A stretch of 64,000 nt of DNA from IMG/VR virus record IMGVR_UViG_3300032291_002550, positions 436-64,435 of that record, one strand, 5' to 3'. The position numbers were made by a program, and so were the translations under genes. Below, in pieces: positions 28,863-52,425 of the stretch; positions within the stretch are counted from its first letter, which is position 1; the number at the start of each line of letters is the position of its first letter. The stretch is from a virus. The notes below the pieces were generated by a model, which was given only the letters and a program-made list of their open reading frames with translations, searched no databases and was not told where the DNA came from.

Positions 28863-29540
28863 ATGAAAAGAACATTATATTCGCGCGCGACCACAGGAAA
28901 GGTTTTAGAATGGACTATTGAAGTCGAATCTAATAAATATCGTACAATATCCGGTTATATAGACGGAGTAAAAACAACATCAGAATGGACTGTTTGCGAG
29001 CCTAAAAATATAGGAAGAGCAAATGCTACGACAGCAGAAGAACAAGCTATTAATGAATCAACAGCTATTCATCGTAAGAAAATGGAAAAGGGCGCATTTG
29101 AAAATATTAATGATATTGATACACCTATTTATTTCGAGCCAATGTTAGCTGCTAAATGGGAAGATTATAAAAATAAAATAGCATTTCCAGCATATTCTCA
29201 ACCGAAGTTAGATGGCTGTTTAAGTTATGATACGTTAATTAATACTGATAAAGGTAAGTTGATGATCGGAGATATTATTAATAATAATATCGATTGTTTA
29301 GTAGATACATATAATACCAATACCAATTTAATTGAACGTAAGAAAATTTTAAATAGAATGAAAAATGGTATTGATATTAATGAACAGCAACAAACTCAAT
29401 GGTATGAAATCGAAGTGGAAGATGGTCGAAAAATTAAAATTACCGGCAACCATCGAGTATATCTTCCGAAGTTACGGTGTTGGAGACGAGTAGATGAGTT
29501 AAATGAAAATGATATATTATTAAACTATTTTAAAAAATAA
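28863..29540 (+). CDS. lig: ATP-dependent DNA ligase, N-terminal fragment (N-extein through motif I KLDG) fused to the N-terminal half of a split intein
   Basis: Motif I PKLDG is followed directly by intein block A CLSYDTLI and block B ITGNHRVY. The ORF terminates after the intein-N region. Confidence 0.8.
   Translation: MKRTLYSRATTGKVLEWTIEVESNKYRTISGYIDGVKTTSEWTVCEPKNIGRANATTAEEQAINESTAIHRKKMEKGAFENINDIDTPIYFEPMLAAKWEDYKNKIAFPAYSQPKLDGCLSYDTLINTDKGKLMIGDIINNNIDCLVDTYNTNTNLIERKKILNRMKNGIDINEQQQTQWYEIEVEDGRKIKITGNHRVYLPKLRCWRRVDELNENDILLNYFKK
29217..29537 (+). mobile_element. Split intein N-terminal half (IntN, ~107 aa)
   Basis: Starts with Cys (CLSYDT) immediately after the ligase KLDG. 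Contains the TxxH block B (TGNH). Confidence 0.75.
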
Positions 29541-29589
29541 CCATCAACTTTTTGGTGTAATATAATAATTATAATAAATAAAGATTTAT

Positions 29590-30504
29590 ATGACACCTAT
29601 AGAAAAGTTACAACAGATAGAACTGAATACAGCAATTTTAAATTACCACGGTAATGATCATACAAGAAGAAAGTACATACGTGATATTATTACTGCTGAA
29701 TTACTTAAGTATTTAGTAATTGATAAAAAATATCCATCTAATTACATCGGAACATTGATTTCTGATATCATCGGTATACGAATAGATGCAGGATATATAA
29801 TTCATAGATGTAAAGAATTAAATATTAAAACATTTTCAATTAAAGAATCTGCTAACTTAAAATCAACAAAAGTAAGAAAGGCAGAAACATGTATAAAGAA
29901 ATATGGGTCATCAAATCCGTTAGGAAAACAAAGCCCGATATATAAAAAGCGCAATCAAACAGTCCAAGAAAAGTATGGTGTATCAAATGTATTTCAACTA
30001 GACTCTGTTAAAATGAAAACAAAAGATACGATGATAAAAAAGTATGGTGTATCAAATCCAGTATATATGGAAAACTATAAACGAAATTGTGGGCGTCGTA
30101 GTAAAATACATACTACAATAGAAACTCTCTTAATTGACTTAAATATACAATTTGAATCAGAAAAAAGAAATATGTTTTCTGCATTTAATAAATACTATAA
30201 TAAAATATATTCGCCTCAAGTAGACATCCTATTGAATGATTATAATATAGTAATAGAAATAAATGGAGATTTATGGCACGCAAATCCTAAAAAATATAAA
30301 GCAACTGACTTAATACCATTACGAATTGGACAGACTGAAGCCCAGATAATTTGGGCACGTGATGCTGCCAGAACAGAACAAATTAAATCATTCGGCTTCG
30401 AAGTAATTGAATTATGGGAGCATGATATTAAAACTAACTTAAGTATAATAAAAGAACAGTTATATGAAAAAATATATAAAAATAACAAAAATTACGAAGA
30501 TTGA
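29590..30504 (+). CDS. Homing endonuclease (HEG2) between the split-intein halves: KYGVSN repeats plus a C-terminal PD-(D/E)xK nuclease
   Basis: Repeats KKYGSSNP / EKYGVSNV / KKYGVSNP. C-terminal DILLNDYNIVIEINGDLWHANP resembles the nuclease core of HEG1 and HEG3. The 3' end overlaps the IntC ORF. Confidence 0.7.
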   Translation: MTPIEKLQQIELNTAILNYHGNDHTRRKYIRDIITAELLKYLVIDKKYPSNYIGTLISDIIGIRIDAGYIIHRCKELNIKTFSIKESANLKSTKVRKAETCIKKYGSSNPLGKQSPIYKKRNQTVQEKYGVSNVFQLDSVKMKTKDTMIKKYGVSNPVYMENYKRNCGRRSKIHTTIETLLIDLNIQFESEKRNMFSAFNKYYNKIYSPQVDILLNDYNIVIEINGDLWHANPKKYKATDLIPLRIGQTEAQIIWARDAARTEQIKSFGFEVIELWEHDIKTNLSIIKEQLYEKIYKNNKNYED

Positions 30505-30577
30505 TCCTGAAGTTAAATATGATCTTGAAATACAAGATAACCACAACTATTTTGCAAACGATATACTAGTGCATAAT
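30464..30577 (+). mobile_element. Split intein C-terminal half (IntC, 38 aa)
   Basis: Ends in block G NDILVHN, followed by the Cys+1 of the extein. Confidence 0.75.
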
Positions 30578-31315
30578 TGTCGTGCCATTGTTAAGAGTGA
30601 CGGTATGTGGACACGAAATGGTAAGCCTATTATATCTGCTCCGCATATATTTGAATGTCTTAAGCCGTTATTTGAAATTAATCCAGATCTTATTTTTGAC
30701 GGGGAACTTTATGCTGATAAATTTGCTAACGATTTTAATGCTATATGTTCATTAGTAAAGAAAACTAAACCAACAGCCGAAGATATTAACGAATCAAAGG
30801 AAAAGATTCAGTATCATGTATATGATTTACCGAGCTTTAATGCCACATTTGTTCCAAGATTCCAACATCTTCATAAAATGCTTACAAATTATCACCCGTC
30901 TATTGTTGTTGTACAAACAGAACAAGTAGACAATTTTAATGATGTAGATGCGTTCTACGAAGATTATATTTCTTTGGGATATGAAGGTCAAATGATACGA
31001 TTAGACGCTCAATATGAACATAAAAGAACAAAGTCTTTATTAAAGAATAAGTCCTTTATAGATGAAGAATATACGATCATTGATATTGAAGAAGGTAATG
31101 GAAACAAAGCCGGAATGGTAGGTTCTTTTGTATTTAAGAATGCTAATGGCAAAATATTCAATGCTTCTCCTAAGTTTAACTGGGGCATATGCCAACGAAT
31201 GTTAAACGATAGAGAATTATTAATCGGAAAAGAAGCTACGATTAAGTATTTTAATTTAACACCAGATAATATACCTAGATTTCCGTACGTAATAGCGATA
31301 CGAGATTACGAATAA
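30464..31315 (+). CDS. lig: Split intein C-terminal half fused to the DNA ligase C-terminal fragment (C-extein)
   Basis: After ...ILVHN, the extein CRAIVKSDG completes motif I KxDGxR. It is followed by motif III LIFDGELYA, motif IV EGQMIRLD and motif V LLKNKS. Confidence 0.8.
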   Translation: MKKYIKITKITKIDPEVKYDLEIQDNHNYFANDILVHNCRAIVKSDGMWTRNGKPIISAPHIFECLKPLFEINPDLIFDGELYADKFANDFNAICSLVKKTKPTAEDINESKEKIQYHVYDLPSFNATFVPRFQHLHKMLTNYHPSIVVVQTEQVDNFNDVDAFYEDYISLGYEGQMIRLDAQYEHKRTKSLLKNKSFIDEEYTIIDIEEGNGNKAGMVGSFVFKNANGKIFNASPKFNWGICQRMLNDRELLIGKEATIKYFNLTPDNIPRFPYVIAIRDYE

Positions 31316-31601: not shown

Positions 31602-32429
31602 ATGAAAAATAAAATAAAATCAGTGTTAATGGTACTGGGTGCCATTTCACTACTTAGCTTAGGAAGTTGTTCACGTATTGACGCTGGACATGTAGGTATG
31701 AAAGTTTCTTACTTTGGAGATGACAAAGGAGTAAATGACATTGTGTATGTTACGGGGTGGACATTTTACAATCCTCTTACATCAACAGTTATTGAGTGGC
31801 CAACATTCGTTAGACACGTTGAGTATGTAGGAGAGCATGGGTTCGTTGTAAATTCAAAAGACGGAAGCGAATTTGCCGTAAATCCTATTATCAATTATAG
31901 TATCGTGCCGGATAAAGCTCCAGATATCTATAGAAAATATCGTAAAGATTTAGGTGATCTCGAAATAGCATTTTTAAAGACAACAGTCCAGGACGTATTT
32001 CGTGTCGCTGCTAATGAATTTAATGCAGATAGTTTAATAAGTAATAGACAAAGATTCGAGACGTTAGTAATGAAGGACTTACATAGTCGATTAACTTCGG
32101 AAGGATTCATGGTTCAGCAATTAACAAGTAACTTAGTTTATCCAGAATCATTTAAGAATGCGATTAATGCTAAGAATAATGCAGTACAGCAAGCTCTTCA
32201 GGCCGAGAATCAAGTAAAAACGGCAGAAGCTCAAGCTAAAATTAAAGTGGCTCAAGCAGACGGTGAAGCTCAAGCAATGTTAACGACCGCTCGCGCTGAA
32301 GCAGAAGCTAATAGATTAAGACAAACAACCTTAACAGAGAATTTATTACAGCAACAGTTTATTAATAAATGGGATGGTGTATTGCCTGTATATGGCCAAG
32401 TACCAACCTTATTTAAATCTATTCAGTAA
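31602..32429 (+). CDS. SPFH/band-7 (prohibitin/HflC-like) lipoprotein
   Basis: Lipobox LSLGSC. SPFH core with a C-terminal Ala/Gln-rich coiled coil (AEAQAKIKVAQADGEAQAMLTTARAEAEANRL). Confidence 0.7.
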   Translation: MKNKIKSVLMVLGAISLLSLGSCSRIDAGHVGMKVSYFGDDKGVNDIVYVTGWTFYNPLTSTVIEWPTFVRHVEYVGEHGFVVNSKDGSEFAVNPIINYSIVPDKAPDIYRKYRKDLGDLEIAFLKTTVQDVFRVAANEFNADSLISNRQRFETLVMKDLHSRLTSEGFMVQQLTSNLVYPESFKNAINAKNNAVQQALQAENQVKTAEAQAKIKVAQADGEAQAMLTTARAEAEANRLRQTTLTENLLQQQFINKWDGVLPVYGQVPTLFKSIQ

Positions 32430-32440
32430 TAAAACGGATA

Positions 32441-32513
32441 ACTCAGATGGCGTAATTGGTAACGCGCCCGTCCTGGAGATGGGAAGATATAGGTTCGAAT
32501 CCTATTCTGAGTT
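32441..32513 (+). tRNA. tRNA (73 nt). Anticodon loop CCUGGAG, so Pro(UGG) in the canonical register, but position 33 is C
   Basis: Hand-folded. Acceptor actcaga/tctgagt, D-stem gcgt/acgc, anticodon stem cccgt/atggg, T-arm atagg-ttcgaat-cctat. No encoded CCA. Confidence 0.6.
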
Positions 32514-32547
32514 CAAAAAAAAAATAACTTGCAAGTTATTTTAAATA

Positions 32548-32668
32548 GTCAGGTGGCGGAAAGGTATTAGTAGTGGTGAACGAAAATATCGTGGTAGACG
32601 CTAGTTAACAGACAGAGAGATAAAAGGAATGGTTTACTCTCATACAGGTTCGAATCCTGTCCTGACTA
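32548..32668 (+). ncRNA. Atypical tRNA-like element (121 nt) with a canonical acceptor stem and T-arm but a non-tRNA interior
   Basis: Acceptor agtcagg/cctgact and T-arm acagg-ttcgaat-cctgt are perfect. I could not fold the ~85-nt interior into D or anticodon arms. Confidence 0.35.
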
Positions 32669-32682
32669 CTAAAAAGAAAGTT

Positions 32683-32838
32683 ATGTCATCAGAAACAAAA
32701 AAAAGAAAGTCAGATAAAAAATTACATTGGGGTCGAGGTAGACATTTCATGAAATGGGTAGGTAAGGGCATAAAAGGACTTACTTATTTTACATCGTCTC
32801 AAAGACGAATAAATAATAAAATTGACTTAGAAGATTAA
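32683..32838 (+). CDS. Small basic protein (51 aa). Track ORF 32629..32838 trimmed to the aagttATG start
   Basis: MSSETKKRKSDKKLHWGRGRHF..., preceded by the conserved aagttATG context. The N-terminal part of the track ORF overlaps the tRNA-like element. Confidence 0.3.
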   Translation: MSSETKKRKSDKKLHWGRGRHFMKWVGKGIKGLTYFTSSQRRINNKIDLED

Positions 32839-32843
32839 AATAT

Positions 32844-32935
32844 AGTCAGGGGGTAATATAGGCAGCTACCCATCCGGAGTGGGGTGAGTTAAGAAGTGGG
32901 TTTCTTAAATGCAGGTTCGAATCCTGCCCTGACTG
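32844..32935 (+). ncRNA. Atypical tRNA-like element (92 nt), paralogous to the 32548..32668 element
   Basis: Same acceptor agtcagg/cctgact, and T-arm gcagg-ttcgaat-cctgc. The interior holds a 7-bp hairpin ttaagaa-gtgggt-ttcttaa and a possible tccggag loop, but no clean cloverleaf. Confidence 0.35.
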
Positions 32936-32949
32936 CAAAAATTAAAAGT

Positions 32950-33525
32950 ATGAAAGTAATATTCTTAGATATAGACGGCGTTCTTAATTGTCAAGATGCA
33001 TATCATAATAATGAATGTAAATATGTTGATTTTACATTAAATGATGTTGAAGACTTTTATCAGACATTTTGTTCTTGGAGTAAAATGTGGTTGAATAAAT
33101 TAATTGATGAGACTGGAGCTAAAATAGTAATATCTTCTACTTGGAGACATTCAGGTATTGATTTCATGAAAAAAGTTTGGGAATTAGAAGAAATGAGTGG
33201 CGAGATAATTGGGTTGACTCCTCACTTAAAAAGAGCCGATAACTATACTATACCTCGTGGATGTGAAATTGATTTTTACTTAAACAATACATTAAACTTT
33301 AGCCATATCAATTGGGATAAAACTATACAACAAGAATATATGTATAAATCAGGTATTGAAAACTATATTATAATTGATGATGATTCTGATATGTTGTATG
33401 GTCAAAGACATCATTTTATAAATGTATTACCTTCTCCAAGAAACACAAAAGGATTTAATGAAGAACATTATAAACTTGGAATGGAGATGTTAAGTAAAAC
33501 AGTAATTGATTTAAATTATGAATAA
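32950..33525 (+). CDS. HAD-superfamily hydrolase (nucleotidase-like). Start corrected from the track ORF
   Basis: HAD motif I FLDIDGVLN and ISSTWR. The track ORF's N-terminus overlaps the tRNA-like element. The ATG at 32950 has an aaagtATG context. Confidence 0.6.
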   Translation: MKVIFLDIDGVLNCQDAYHNNECKYVDFTLNDVEDFYQTFCSWSKMWLNKLIDETGAKIVISSTWRHSGIDFMKKVWELEEMSGEIIGLTPHLKRADNYTIPRGCEIDFYLNNTLNFSHINWDKTIQQEYMYKSGIENYIIIDDDSDMLYGQRHHFINVLPSPRNTKGFNEEHYKLGMEMLSKTVIDLNYE

Positions 33526-34350: not shown

Positions 34351-34941
34351 ATGAAAGTAATATTCTTAGATAATGATGGCGTAATATGCCTAGCCCATAA
34401 TTGGGGTTCTAGATATAAAAAACGTGTTGCGGCAGATCGTAATCCGCACATGGATAGTAATTTACAAAATGTCGAATATCGTTTTGATAATTTTGATACT
34501 AAAGCAATTGAAGTATTAAATGAAATCTTAAAAAAGACTGATGCAGAAATAGTTGTTAGTTCTGATTGGAGATTACATGCAACCTTAGAGGAATTAGGTA
34601 AATATTACCTGTCTCAAGGTATTATTAAAGCGCCTATTGCTATTACTTCGAGGACTGAAGATATAGACCCCGGAGCATGGAATTTACTAAGATATAGAGC
34701 AGATCTGGAGCTAGAACGTTCGATTGAAATACTAGATTGGCTAGATAAACATCCTGAGGTAACGAATTGGGTTGCAGTTGATGATTTAAATATGTCCGTT
34801 AACTATTTATCAGGACTTTTTTCTAATAAAGATGAGTTAGATAAAAAGCCCGGATTGACAAATTTCGTTCATACTAAAAAATCTAGTGAAGGAATAAAAC
34901 AAGTGGGCATTAAGGATAAAATATTAAATTATTTGATATGA
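34351..34941 (+). CDS. HAD-superfamily hydrolase, paralogue of 32950..33525
   Basis: MKVIFLDNDGVI and SSDWR. Confidence 0.6.
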   Translation: MKVIFLDNDGVICLAHNWGSRYKKRVAADRNPHMDSNLQNVEYRFDNFDTKAIEVLNEILKKTDAEIVVSSDWRLHATLEELGKYYLSQGIIKAPIAITSRTEDIDPGAWNLLRYRADLELERSIEILDWLDKHPEVTNWVAVDDLNMSVNYLSGLFSNKDELDKKPGLTNFVHTKKSSEGIKQVGIKDKILNYLI

Positions 34942-37329: not shown

Positions 37330-38559
37330 ATGAATAAATTAGATAAAGATTATTGTGACCTACTTCAAGATATTTTGGAAAATGGGACAAAAAAAGAAAC
37401 TCGTAATGGTGGAACTATAAGTGTTTTTGGTAGACAAATAAGACATAAAATGTCCGATGGATTTCCTTTGCTTACGACAAAGAAAATGTATATGAAAGGA
37501 ATTATAACTGAATTGTTATGGTTCTTACGTGGAGATACTAACATTAAATACTTAGTTGATAATAATTGTCATATTTGGGATGGTGATGCTTATAAGAATT
37601 ATTATAATAGAATGTGGAGTCTTAATCCTCTACCCAAGTTAACACAAGAAGAATTCATCAACAAAATCAAAACCGATGATGAGTTTGCTAATAAGTGGGG
37701 TGAGTTAGGACCAATTTATGGTAAGCAATGGAGAAGTTGGGAAACTAAGTATATTAAACCCAAAAGTCAATATGCGATTAAACCTAGTAATGGATGGCCA
37801 GATTCTATCAATATCGACCAAATCGCAAACCTAATCAACGACATTAAAACAAATCCAGACTCAAGACGATTAATGGTTAATGCTTGGAATGTGGGTGAAC
37901 TGGATTCGATGGTTCTTCCACCTTGTCATTATGGATTTCAAGTTTATACAAGAGAGTTGAGTTTAGAAGAGAGATGTGATGAATATATTAAAAGACACCC
38001 GAAAGAAACAAACGATGGAGTGTTAAATTACAAATGGATTGGTGATAATTTATGTACTCATGAAGATTACGATAAATGGAATATCCCAAAACGAGCAATC
38101 TCACTAATGTGGAATCAACGAAGCGTAGATACATTTTTAGGACTTCCTTTCAATATAGCATCTTACGGATTGTTGTTAGAAATCATTGCTAAGGCAGTTA
38201 ATATGGTTCCTGAAGAGTTAATTGGTAACTTAGGTGATACACATTTATATTTAAACCATATTGAACAAGCGAAGGAACAAATTGGGAGAGAATTAAGTTT
38301 AGATGAAAGGATTGATTTAGCATCATTAGATATACATTTCGATCCGTTTGATTTCGGCGTTGGTATGATATCTGCTGAGCATTCTCATAAAGTATGTGAT
38401 GATTATGGTATTCCAAAACGAACAAGACAACCTTATCCATTGCCAACATTAAGAATCTCTTCAGGTCCTTTAGATGATATTGCTCATCACGAAATTATGG
38501 ATTTTATATTAGAAAACTATCAATCACATCCATCAATTAAAGCTCCTTTGTCAAATTAA
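37330..38559 (+). CDS. thyA: Thymidylate synthase (ThyA) with three in-frame peptide-module insertions
   Basis: GELGPIYGKQWRSW, catalytic PPCH, DTFLGLPFNIASY (Asn conserved, so dUMP-specific), GDTHLY, C-terminal HPSIKAPL. 409 aa because of ~21-, 48- and 46-aa insertions. Confidence 0.85.
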   Translation: MNKLDKDYCDLLQDILENGTKKETRNGGTISVFGRQIRHKMSDGFPLLTTKKMYMKGIITELLWFLRGDTNIKYLVDNNCHIWDGDAYKNYYNRMWSLNPLPKLTQEEFINKIKTDDEFANKWGELGPIYGKQWRSWETKYIKPKSQYAIKPSNGWPDSINIDQIANLINDIKTNPDSRRLMVNAWNVGELDSMVLPPCHYGFQVYTRELSLEERCDEYIKRHPKETNDGVLNYKWIGDNLCTHEDYDKWNIPKRAISLMWNQRSVDTFLGLPFNIASYGLLLEIIAKAVNMVPEELIGNLGDTHLYLNHIEQAKEQIGRELSLDERIDLASLDIHFDPFDFGVGMISAEHSHKVCDDYGIPKRTRQPYPLPTLRISSGPLDDIAHHEIMDFILENYQSHPSIKAPLSN

Positions 38560-51399: not shown

Positions 51400-52425
51400 A
51401 TGGAATCATCAAATAATTTTATCAAATGTGCTATATGCGATTCATTAATGCAGTCAAGAATTAATGGGTCGCACTTAAAAACACATAACATATCTATAAC
51501 AGAATATTTGATTAAGTATCCGTTTGCAGAAACGGGGTCTTATATATCATCAACTTTTAAATGTCAGATCTGTAACACTGATATTGAAAATAAAAGTTCA
51601 GTTAAGATAAAACATTTAAAAGATCATGGTTATTCTATAGATGAATATAATATACAGTACTTAAAACGTCTTTGCCAATGTGGATGTAATGGCATAGCAA
51701 CATATTCATATGCTAGACATAAGTATAACAAGTATATTGAAGGTCATGACATCACATCATGGAATACCGGATTAACTAAAGAAACACATGACTCTTTAAA
51801 GAGGGTATCAGAAGCTAGAAAAAGAACAAAAGGTACATATACAGATGAACAAAAATTAAAAATCTCTGAGAAAACTAAATTATCATGGAAAGAACATCCA
51901 GAATCTAAATTAAAGATGGTGAAATCTTATAAAGAGACTATGATTAAAAAATATGGAGTAGATAATTTTAGTAAAACACCAGAATTTCTAGAAAAGTTTA
52001 AAAATACATCTTTAAACCGATATGGAGTAGAATATCCTAATCAAGACCCTGAAATATATGAACGTTCATGTAAAGGCAGAAAATATTATAAAGATTATAT
52101 ATTACCATCAGGTAAAAAGATACGAATTCAAGGATATGAGGGATATGCTTTAGATATACTATTAAATTCATATCATGAAGATGATATATTAACAAAAAAA
52201 TCTGATATGCCAATAGTATGGTATGAATTTGAAAATAAAAGGCGCAGATATTACCCAGATATTTACATACCATCACAAAATCTAATAATTGAAGTTAAAT
52301 CTACATACACATATAATTTAGAGACTGCTCAGATACATTCTAAAATAAACTCTTTGAAAGATATGGGATTTAATACTAATATTTGGATTATCGATAAAAA
52401 AATAATATATTCAATTATAAAATAA
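51400..52425 (+). CDS. Homing endonuclease (HEG3): zinc-finger-like N-terminus, KYGVxN repeats and a C-terminal PD-(D/E)xK nuclease
   Basis: CAICD...HLKTH and CQICN...HLKDH pairs. Repeats KKYGVDNFSKTPEF / NRYGVEYPNQDPE like HEG2. C-terminal YYPDIYIPSQNLIIEVKSTY (PD...EVK). Confidence 0.65.
   Translation: MESSNNFIKCAICDSLMQSRINGSHLKTHNISITEYLIKYPFAETGSYISSTFKCQICNTDIENKSSVKIKHLKDHGYSIDEYNIQYLKRLCQCGCNGIATYSYARHKYNKYIEGHDITSWNTGLTKETHDSLKRVSEARKRTKGTYTDEQKLKISEKTKLSWKEHPESKLKMVKSYKETMIKKYGVDNFSKTPEFLEKFKNTSLNRYGVEYPNQDPEIYERSCKGRKYYKDYILPSGKKIRIQGYEGYALDILLNSYHEDDILTKKSDMPIVWYEFENKRRRYYPDIYIPSQNLIIEVKSTYTYNLETAQIHSKINSLKDMGFNTNIWIIDKKIIYSIIK

Follow-up and report, generated by a model that had tools for sequence, protein, structure and literature searches.

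Candidate genes for non-decoding, tRNA-shaped small RNAs with a constant tRNA-Leu-like body and variable interiors in uncultivated Bacteroidota phages

That the tRNA clusters of phages include stable, tRNA-like RNAs without an assigned function is old knowledge, and the nearest natural analogue of the RNAs considered here is the pair of stable RNAs C and D of phage T4 (species 1 and 2, encoded by rnaC and rnaD), whose genes lie in the phage tRNA cluster beside a homing endonuclease gene and whose biological roles are still unknown (PMC3014915). In the present case, a 64-kb stretch of viral DNA (positions 436 to 64,435 of IMG/VR record IMGVR_UViG_3300032291_002550; hereafter, the window, with a G+C content of 29.5%) contains three tRNA-shaped elements on the + strand, to which hundreds of genes of an unusually clear design can be related. 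The reading preferred here, with a probability of about 0.55, is that all three encode small tRNA-shaped RNAs that do not decode, belong to a large superfamily of uncultivated Bacteroidota phages and serve as stable scaffolds carrying variable, trans-acting modules. What appears to be new is a family with a constant tRNA-Leu-like body and a hypervariable interior, phage tRNA-like stable RNAs being already known as a kind.

The likeness to the T4 RNAs is one of architecture, since rnaC (139 nucleotides, nt) also combines a canonical CCGGG-UUCGAAU-CCCGG T-arm with a long structured interior. Unlike the family, RNAs C and D are present in one copy each, share no scaffold, lack the tRNA-Leu D-arm and the A15-U48 core, and offer no evidence of exchangeable hypervariable interiors or of a spread over hundreds of phages; no similarity was noticed on reading the sequences side by side, without alignment. 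The nearest design analogue is synthetic: in the engineered “tRNA scaffolds” of Ponchon and Dardel (2007), recombinant RNA was reportedly expressed in bacteria in place of the anticodon arm. Such constructs keep the acceptor, D-arm, T-arm and core intact for processing and stability and carry a structured insert at the anticodon stem, whereas the family is natural, phage-encoded and tRNA-Leu-derived, and sometimes has inserts in the D-loop as well. Transfer-messenger RNA (tmRNA), whose genes are found in the same phage arrays, resembles the family in joining a tRNA-like acceptor and T-arm to a large non-tRNA interior, but it is 300-400 nt long and has a G3:U70 alanine identity pair, pseudoknots and a tag reading frame, while the window elements keep a full D-arm. 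Host tRNA enzymes also recognise two other non-decoding mimics, namely YrlA, a Y RNA-like RNA of bacteria and phages, and the tRNA-like structures found in plant RNA viruses, the latter being charged by host synthetases without decoding; however, the two ends of YrlA lie in a Ro-binding stem and not in an acceptor stem, and the plant-virus structures are pseudoknot-built 3' ends of RNA genomes. Finally, the defence-evading phage tRNAs, comprising anticodon-loop variants and the T5 tRNA that neutralises PARIS, are similar in belonging to phage tRNA arrays and in being changed in the anticodon region (PMC10264068, PMC11464382), although they still decode, and the family has no usable anticodon arm.

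The three elements of the window are flanked on one side by the SPFH/Band-7 gene at 31602-32429 and on the other by a phosphatase-like gene with a HAD_SAK_2 domain (32950-33525), and in each of them the acceptor stem has 7 bp and a T stem of 5 bp carries a UUCRANY loop. Their parts are as follows, “cargo” being the stretch from the D stem to U48.

32441..32513, + strand: element 1, 73 nt, called tRNA-Pro(UGG) by ARAGORN and scoring 60 bits with the Rfam tRNA model
32547..32668, + strand: element 2, tRNA-Leu-like scaffold RNA, 121 nt plus discriminator A
32547-32553 / 32661-32667, + strand: element 2, acceptor stem
32554-32555, + strand: element 2, U8 G9
32556-32558 / 32599-32601, + strand: element 2, D-stem
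32563..32592, + strand: element 2, D-loop insertion of about 30 nt between GGAAA and GGTAGA, flanked by a GGTA direct repeat
32602..32643, + strand: element 2, cargo in place of the anticodon and variable arms
32644-32660, + strand: element 2, T-arm
32668, + strand: element 2, discriminator A73
32844..32935, + strand: element 3, divergent family member, 91 nt plus discriminator G
32844-32850 / 32928-32934, + strand: element 3, acceptor stem
32853-32869, + strand: element 3, D-arm with a 3-bp stem and G18G19 in an 11-nt loop
32871-32886, + strand: element 3, 5-bp stem with a 6-nt loop
32889-32908, + strand: element 3, 7-bp hairpin
32911-32927, + strand: element 3, T-arm
32935, + strand: element 3, discriminator G73

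Elements 2 and 3 have in common the AGTCAGG/CCTGACT acceptor stem and CAGGTTCGAATCCTG, and 24 of their last 27 positions are identical, in agreement with an earlier sequence-only reading of this DNA, which had taken them for paralogues with the same acceptor stem of 7 bp and a T-arm of canonical form. Their 23-nt 3' pattern has exactly two occurrences in the window and none in 100 shuffles, even with 3 mismatches allowed, and both elements match the 3' pattern of the family exactly. The same reading had given element 3 the bounds listed above (32844-32934 plus the discriminator G at 32935) and noted in one of the two an extra 7-bp hairpin, which is real and lies in element 3, and it had found element 2, although with a start at 32548, one base late. 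It had also considered both interiors unfit for D and anticodon arms; this holds for the anticodon arm, which no finder gives, but not for the D-arm, which is present in both elements. In element 2 the D-arm is of the canonical tRNA-Leu type (GCG GAAA..GGTAGA CGC) and is split by the insertion, as seen against the family consensus GCGGAAT(T)GGTAGACGC. With U8 G9, this D-arm, U48 and A73 all present, element 2 is an exact match to the family scaffold, and its constrained fold is also its minimum-energy fold. Its cargo consists, in this order, of a 12-nt linker, a 9-bp bulged hairpin (GAGAG..CTCTC, 32615-32641), an A and U48, and the GAGAG/CTCTC helix directly ahead of the T-arm is also found in other cargo types. 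The trailers read A-CTA in element 2 and G-CAA in element 3.

The family to which these two elements belong was retrieved by exact patterns, with pairing of the stems as a condition. At least 119 IMG/VR contigs contain the 3' pattern CAGGTTCGAATCCTGNCCTGACT, which, among the matches listed, is preceded by AGTCAGG at 53-181 nt upstream in 135 of 156 copies; a 5' 16-mer pattern is likewise present in at least 119 IMG/VR contigs, and about 140 of the 157 copies among the matches listed end in the family T-arm and acceptor strand. Pooled, they give at least 236 unique copies of 50-190 nt in some 172 loci (cited below by L numbers) from viruses or metagenome-assembled genomes (MAGs), with up to 8 copies per locus, located in the tRNA arrays of uncultivated, mostly freshwater Bacteroidota phages. 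In L011, 8 family copies and 2 other tRNA-like RNAs stand against 5 real tRNAs within 3.5 kb. A host origin was considered and rejected: in a set of 185,579 genomes, each from a different species, the isolates lacked the pattern of acceptor and T-arm, which appeared only in 18 MAG contigs, mostly of Chitinophagia, Flavobacterium, Saprospirales and other Bacteroidota. Nothing equivalent was met elsewhere either, as a BLAST search of 50,697 phage records returned none with both halves (the 5' half matching ordinary tRNA-Leu genes), the 4,227 families of Rfam 15 include no model for the family beyond partial tRNA matches, and a full-text search of the literature, literal scaffold sequences included, found no description of it. 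Searches with Rfam 15 at gathering and E-value thresholds, over the window and about 200 kb of element-rich loci, gave only tRNA, tmRNA, group I intron and freshwater-1, and left the cargos unmatched.

The constant part comprises a 7-bp acceptor stem (mostly AGUCAGG/CCUGACU), U8, A14, A15-U48, G18G19, A20a, a 5-bp T stem and A73. Among the 147 members with a standard D-arm, the core nucleotides are conserved as U8 (144), G9 (139), A14 (143), A15 (141), U48 (132) and A73 (125), and the T loop is UUCGAAU in 102. The D-arm GCG-GAAU(U)GGUAGA-CGC, which contains the commonest D-loops, matches the genuine phage tRNA-Leu(UAA) genes of the same loci, and not those for tRNA-Ser or tRNA-Tyr, and is accompanied by a [A/G]CAGG-TTCGAAT-CCTG[T/C] T-arm. 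The scaffold hardly varies (AGTCAGG opens 213 of the 236 copies), while the genuine tRNA-Leu genes of the same loci are diverse in acceptor and T stems. For the leucyl-tRNA synthetase (LeuRS) of E. coli, the identity set is A73, A15-U48, G18G19, A20a, U8:A14 and the D/T-loop tertiary pairs, and a tRNA-Leu without anticodon and variable arms is still charged (PMC9976931). Both the family consensus and element 2 contain these determinants, so that the constant part is, as far as the sequence tells, the bacterial LeuRS identity set together with the features required by RNase P, RNase Z and the CCA enzyme; G73 of element 3 is a predicted LeuRS antideterminant. The discriminator is followed by C74 and then by no CA, which is also the case (C74 and then A or T) in 273 of the 301 real tRNAs of these loci.

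Several lines of evidence indicate that it is the RNA that is under selection. Compensatory pairs exist in the T stem and in the cargo helix stacked on the D stem, and there are three RNAs that agree in cargo, D-arm and T-arm while their three acceptor stems are unrelated, with all 7 pairs changed on both sides. The orientation is that of the neighbouring tRNAs in 134 cases against 0, and that of the open reading frames (ORFs) in 412 against 52. These compensatory changes, together with the conservation of core and trailer, the strict orientation and the lack of target-site duplications (whose absence also led to the rejection of a transposition like that of miniature inverted-repeat transposable elements), point to selection at the RNA level, which would act on the scaffold and also on some, at least, of the cargos.

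In contrast to the scaffold, the cargo is hypervariable. It measures 16-146 nt (median 53), falls into 202 clusters among 236 copies, 179 of them singletons, and is joined in about 10% of members by a D-loop insertion at the same place as that of element 2. In 150 of 191 copies the first cargo helix begins 0-1 nt past the D stem, where the anticodon stem would stack, and within one cargo type the helices stay paired through compensatory changes and the single-stranded stretches are conserved. At nine loci, whose flanking coding sequences are 88-96% identical in nucleotides, an identical scaffold occupies the same intergenic site with 5-6 unalignable cargos of differing length; one of them, L074, has an extra tandem copy. 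Conversely, for 40 of the 50 pairs with a common cargo type, no flank homology is detectable. The cargo thus behaves as a cassette-like variable module that is replaced at a fixed site. Some cargos (e.g., L033 3721-3807, L023, L040, L087 and L093) contain a second T-arm-like hairpin of the GGTTCGATYCC type, which suggests nested or duplicated tRNA-like modules. On the minus strand of L168, at about 4098 in reverse-complement coordinates, there is an “empty” scaffold, AGTCAGGTGGCGGAATCCTGTCCTGACT, with the interior deleted between the GGAAT of the D-loop and the CGAAT of the T-loop, and other damaged copies are found in L085 and L153.

Can any of these RNAs decode? A standard anticodon arm (5-bp stem, 7-nt loop, U33 and, at position 37, a purine suited to the anticodon) is not there in element 2, and in element 3 the loop on the 5-bp stem has only 6 nt. 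ARAGORN leaves element 2 uncalled and labels element 3 “tRNA-???” with a 2-nt anticodon; with the Rfam tRNA model (RF00005), element 2 gives no match and element 3 reaches 25.1 bits, below the gathering threshold of 29, in an alignment confined to the acceptor and T-arm. Across the family, ARAGORN leaves 125 of 158 copies uncalled, with scattered anticodons in those called, and in its intron mode the “introns” begin anywhere from position 30 to 42, again with scattered anticodons. A class II tRNA (Leu, Ser or Tyr), the outcome by which the sequence-only reading had proposed to judge its own hand-fold, was rejected, as the default, intron and pseudogene modes of ARAGORN give no coherent typing for the window elements and 149 members, and neither these modes nor the Rfam tRNA model fold elements 2 and 3 in that way. 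An intron-containing tRNA was discarded too, since there is no fixed intron position or conserved anticodon, and the same inconsistency leaves the earlier suggestion of tRNAs with small insertions, in the sense of decoding tRNAs, unsupported. The family RNAs, therefore, probably cannot decode. In the window, ARAGORN and RF00023 call no tmRNA (the 3:70 pair is U:A), YrlA (RF02553) has no match and the RNA ends form an acceptor stem, and no group I intron is matched by Rfam in the elements. Of the four candidates listed at first, tRNA mimics and RNAs processed by RNase P and RNase Z fit the evidence best, and recombination sites may be a secondary, DNA-level property.

Element 1 was originally described as a 73-nt tRNA fold with the oddity of C33, and so it is, given its ARAGORN call and Rfam score. 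Pro tRNAs normally all have U33 and G37. Element 1 combines C33 with A37, A1:U72 and U73; a 7-nt anticodon loop is possible only with that C33 and A37, and in the fold of minimum energy C32 pairs with G38, which extends the stem to 6 bp, leaves a loop of 5 nt and beats the cloverleaf by 3.5 kcal/mol. Its orthologues at the same site after the SPFH gene are an 88-nt RNA with a D-loop hairpin and a 4-nt “anticodon” loop in L202, and 72-nt RNAs with a 6-nt “anticodon” loop in L203 and L204, and the acceptor and T stems covary among them. The D-loop insert of L202 (GTGGGAATGAATACCAC) is identical in L107, a member with the AGTCAGG stem, and the D-arm and stem of L203 are similar to those of L116. 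This sharing of modules places all three window elements in one superfamily, and element 1 is thus probably a member of it and not an ordinary decoding tRNA. A search for further members of its lineage recovered only the two contigs already known. Overall, what was initially observed has been confirmed, and the interpretation given to it is sustained in part, having missed the Leu-type D-arms, the membership of element 1 in the superfamily and the large hypervariable family itself.

From this we infer transcription, processing, stability, aminoacylation and a role in trans. The elements would be co-transcribed with the adjacent genes and tRNAs, excised by the RNase P and RNase Z of the host, completed by the CCA-adding enzyme and accumulated as stable L-shaped RNAs. 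The constant body would be the handle for processing and stability and might be leucylated and bound by EF-Tu, perhaps with the exception, as regards leucylation, of the members with G73, element 3 among them. Specificity would reside in the variable module, whose action would be in trans and would most plausibly consist in the binding or sequestration of a factor of the host or of a rival, since the cargo turns over like a conflict locus; in addition, the fact that many defences target tRNAs makes decoy or inhibitor roles plausible. A function in phage-host conflict is, accordingly with that turnover, considered probable. A bolder version, put forward here tentatively and as doubtful, is that of a modular RNA arsenal, in which one CCA-tailed and possibly leucylated tRNA-Leu chassis would carry hundreds of swappable modules that inhibit host defences or rivals and are exchanged as cassettes between phages, making a new class of RNA counter-defence and, if true, a natural counterpart of the synthetic tRNA scaffold.

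There are several points that weigh against non-decoding scaffolds with trans-acting modules. The fold z-scores for elements 2 and 3 are modest (-1.2 and -1.8), and element 3 departs from the family consensus in its G8, its G73 (a state found in 20 of 236 members) and its different 3-bp D-arm. Because pairing was a search criterion, any “percent paired” figure is circular, and only compensatory changes count as evidence. With regard to targets and partners, shuffled sequences do as well as elements 1-3 in their longest complementarity to the 64-kb window, which speaks against antisense action there; BLAST of the cargos against 2.1 Mb of masked related loci gave only other family copies and no protospacer-like matches; and clustering of the neighbouring ORFs revealed no partner protein in more than 20 of the 172 loci. 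The search for relatives of the two window cargos returned none for element 3 and, for element 2, matches sharing only the last 9 nt. More generally, the hypervariability could mean that the cargo is unimportant, and the near-invariance of the scaffold next to diverse tRNA-Leu genes could reflect a recent horizontal spread or a role at the DNA level.

An unlikely alternative is a decoy by body alone, in which the constant Leu-like body would block a host factor that reads tRNA shape (a nuclease of the anticodon arm or 3' tail, LeuRS, EF-Tu or a modification enzyme), and the interior would need only to be a stable helix, uncleavable and undecodable, and would so be free to drift or to be swapped. 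The scaffold being far more conserved than the cargo fits this idea, as do the orthologues of element 1, which merely shorten the “anticodon” loop to 4-6 nt, and the several copies per genome, which would raise the dose. Besides, many bacterial defences are reported to hit the anticodon loops, arms or tails of tRNAs, and phages to counter them with tRNAs (e.g., PMC10264068, PMC11464382, PMC12445682, PMC12851939). Nevertheless, a stuffer would not be expected to show cargo types kept across unrelated contexts and acceptor stems, conserved single strands and compensatory helices, nor to reach 146 nt, and such a decoy would need to compete with the very large cellular tRNA pool.

It is improbable that the elements are RNA punctuation, i.e., cis-acting RNase P and RNase Z cut sites that define mRNA ends in the way of mitochondrial tRNA punctuation and release an RNA without a role of its own. 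In its favour, there is little room between the elements and the genes around them (an ATG follows 15 nt after the end of element 2, and likewise after that of element 3, and the spacing elsewhere is alike), they are co-oriented with the flanking ORFs, and their constant parts are only those that RNase P and RNase Z need. However, 37% of copies have a tRNA or a further family member no more than 200 nt away, there are dense arrays almost without ORFs such as that of L011, and punctuation does not require A73, A15-U48 or long, conserved, structured cargos.

Still less probable is that these are recombination modules or selfish cassettes at the DNA level, whose conserved halves, as portable homology or as recognition sites (e.g., of homing endonucleases), would let neighbouring genes and cassettes be shuffled among phages that co-infect a cell, like the promoter early stem-loop (PeSL) repeats of T4-type phages, the tRNA likeness being ancestral. 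The exchange of cargo at a fixed site and the tandem copy of L074 are what such modules would produce, and so are the presence of one cargo in unrelated contexts, the “empty” copy of L168 arisen from a deletion between GGAAT and CGAAT, the absence from the closest relatives of the block with elements 2 and 3, the richness of the window in homing-endonuclease and intein genes, and a scaffold that is nearly invariant beside variable real tRNA-Leu genes. Nonetheless, the acceptor, T and cargo helices are kept by compensatory changes, the nucleotides of the tertiary core and the tRNA-type trailer are conserved, the orientation is strict, and no target-site duplications are seen.

Real decoding tRNAs, be they of class II, intron-containing or with expanded anticodon loops that mature to adaptors, are very improbable; element 1 passes tRNA models and many family members score 31-50 bits with that of Rfam, but these scores derive solely from the acceptor, D and T arms, the anticodon, loop size and intron position are all inconsistent, element 1 has its C33, A37 and orthologues with 4- or 6-nt loops, and the window uses the standard genetic code in long ORFs. 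The least probable option, decaying tRNA-Leu pseudogenes or leftovers of integration sites, could call on a few truncated or damaged copies (L168, L085, L153) and the “aberrant” look of the interiors, but is already largely refuted by hundreds of copies with perfect stems and core nucleotides, by covariation, by the lack of any host tRNA with this acceptor stem in the 185,579 species genomes, and by the G+C content of the elements (43-51% against 29.5% for the window).

The arrays also hold other structured RNAs. A second tRNA-like family of 155-175 nt with G73 is found on the minus strand of L013 (588-742) and in L038, L051 and L091; its acceptor stems covary (TGTCAGG, TGTAAGG, TGACAGG, TGTAGAG), its interior is strongly conserved (…CCCACTCGTCTCGTGGGCGCTGA…GGGTTGACCACAAAGCCGGC…), and it has no Rfam match at E<0.1. 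A freshwater-1 RNA (RF02979) with 70.1 bits, just under its gathering score of 72, lies at 4124-4186 of L017 within an array of tRNAs and family members, and tmRNA genes and a group I intron are present in similar arrays (L010, L013, L077).

As for the surroundings of the elements, two further features can be added to those above.

32521..32542, + strand: AU-rich perfect palindrome of 22 nt, AAAATAACTTG/CAAGTTATTTT = AAAATAACTTGCAAGTTATTTT, read from the sequence
32683..32838, + strand: small basic ORF of 51 amino acids between elements 2 and 3, a real conserved phage protein

The palindrome lies between elements 1 and 2, preceded by a run of A and ahead of the start of element 2, and was not called by the terminator scan because it has fewer than 3 G-C pairs and is too AU-rich; the promoter and terminator scan of the window was uninformative, Bacteroidota promoters being outside its coverage. 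The small basic ORF, correctly placed by the sequence-only reading, is 78% identical, in both nucleotides and protein, to XAI97325, a hypothetical protein of the cyanophage Leptolyngbya phage Lbo-JY46, with differences mostly at third positions, which is striking given the different host phyla. It has no match in Pfam or PHROG and was rejected as a regular partner of the RNA family, since it is absent from all other family loci. The window phage itself has T4-like replication genes and a protein with a type IX secretion system (T9SS) sorting domain, which fits a Bacteroidota host. Its nearest relatives, whose SPFH protein is 89% identical, lack the first HAD gene and the small ORF as well as elements 2 and 3, and in them a ClpP-like gene appears, from the aligned sequence, to come next after element 1.

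Just downstream of the elements there are two HAD_SAK_2 paralogues (“Swiss Army Knife RNA repair” HAD domain; 32950-33525 and 34351-34941), which bracket two paralogous phrog_25117 genes, and the second of them has homologues in five other family loci. Upstream, at 28863-31315, a gene for an ATP-dependent DNA ligase appears interrupted: ORF 28863-29540 closes, and ORF 30464-31315 opens, with pieces of an intein-splicing domain, and a DUF7487/DUF559 endonuclease-like ORF (29590-30504) lies between them; a second DUF7487 ORF is found at 51400-52425. The thymidylate synthase ORF 37330-38559, of 409 amino acids, matches the 266-position Pfam model in two stretches, which suggests an insertion inside the enzyme.

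At present, annotation pipelines miss the genes of this family or label them as odd tRNAs, and the window gene called “tRNA-Pro” is itself probably no decoding tRNA. If the interiors are specific effectors, they would constitute a new RNA layer of the phage-host conflict and a natural precedent for the engineering of tRNA scaffolds, and if the body alone matters, the family would be a tRNA decoy of a new kind. In both cases, it is a tractable means of approaching an old question: what are the non-decoding RNAs of phage tRNA arrays for?

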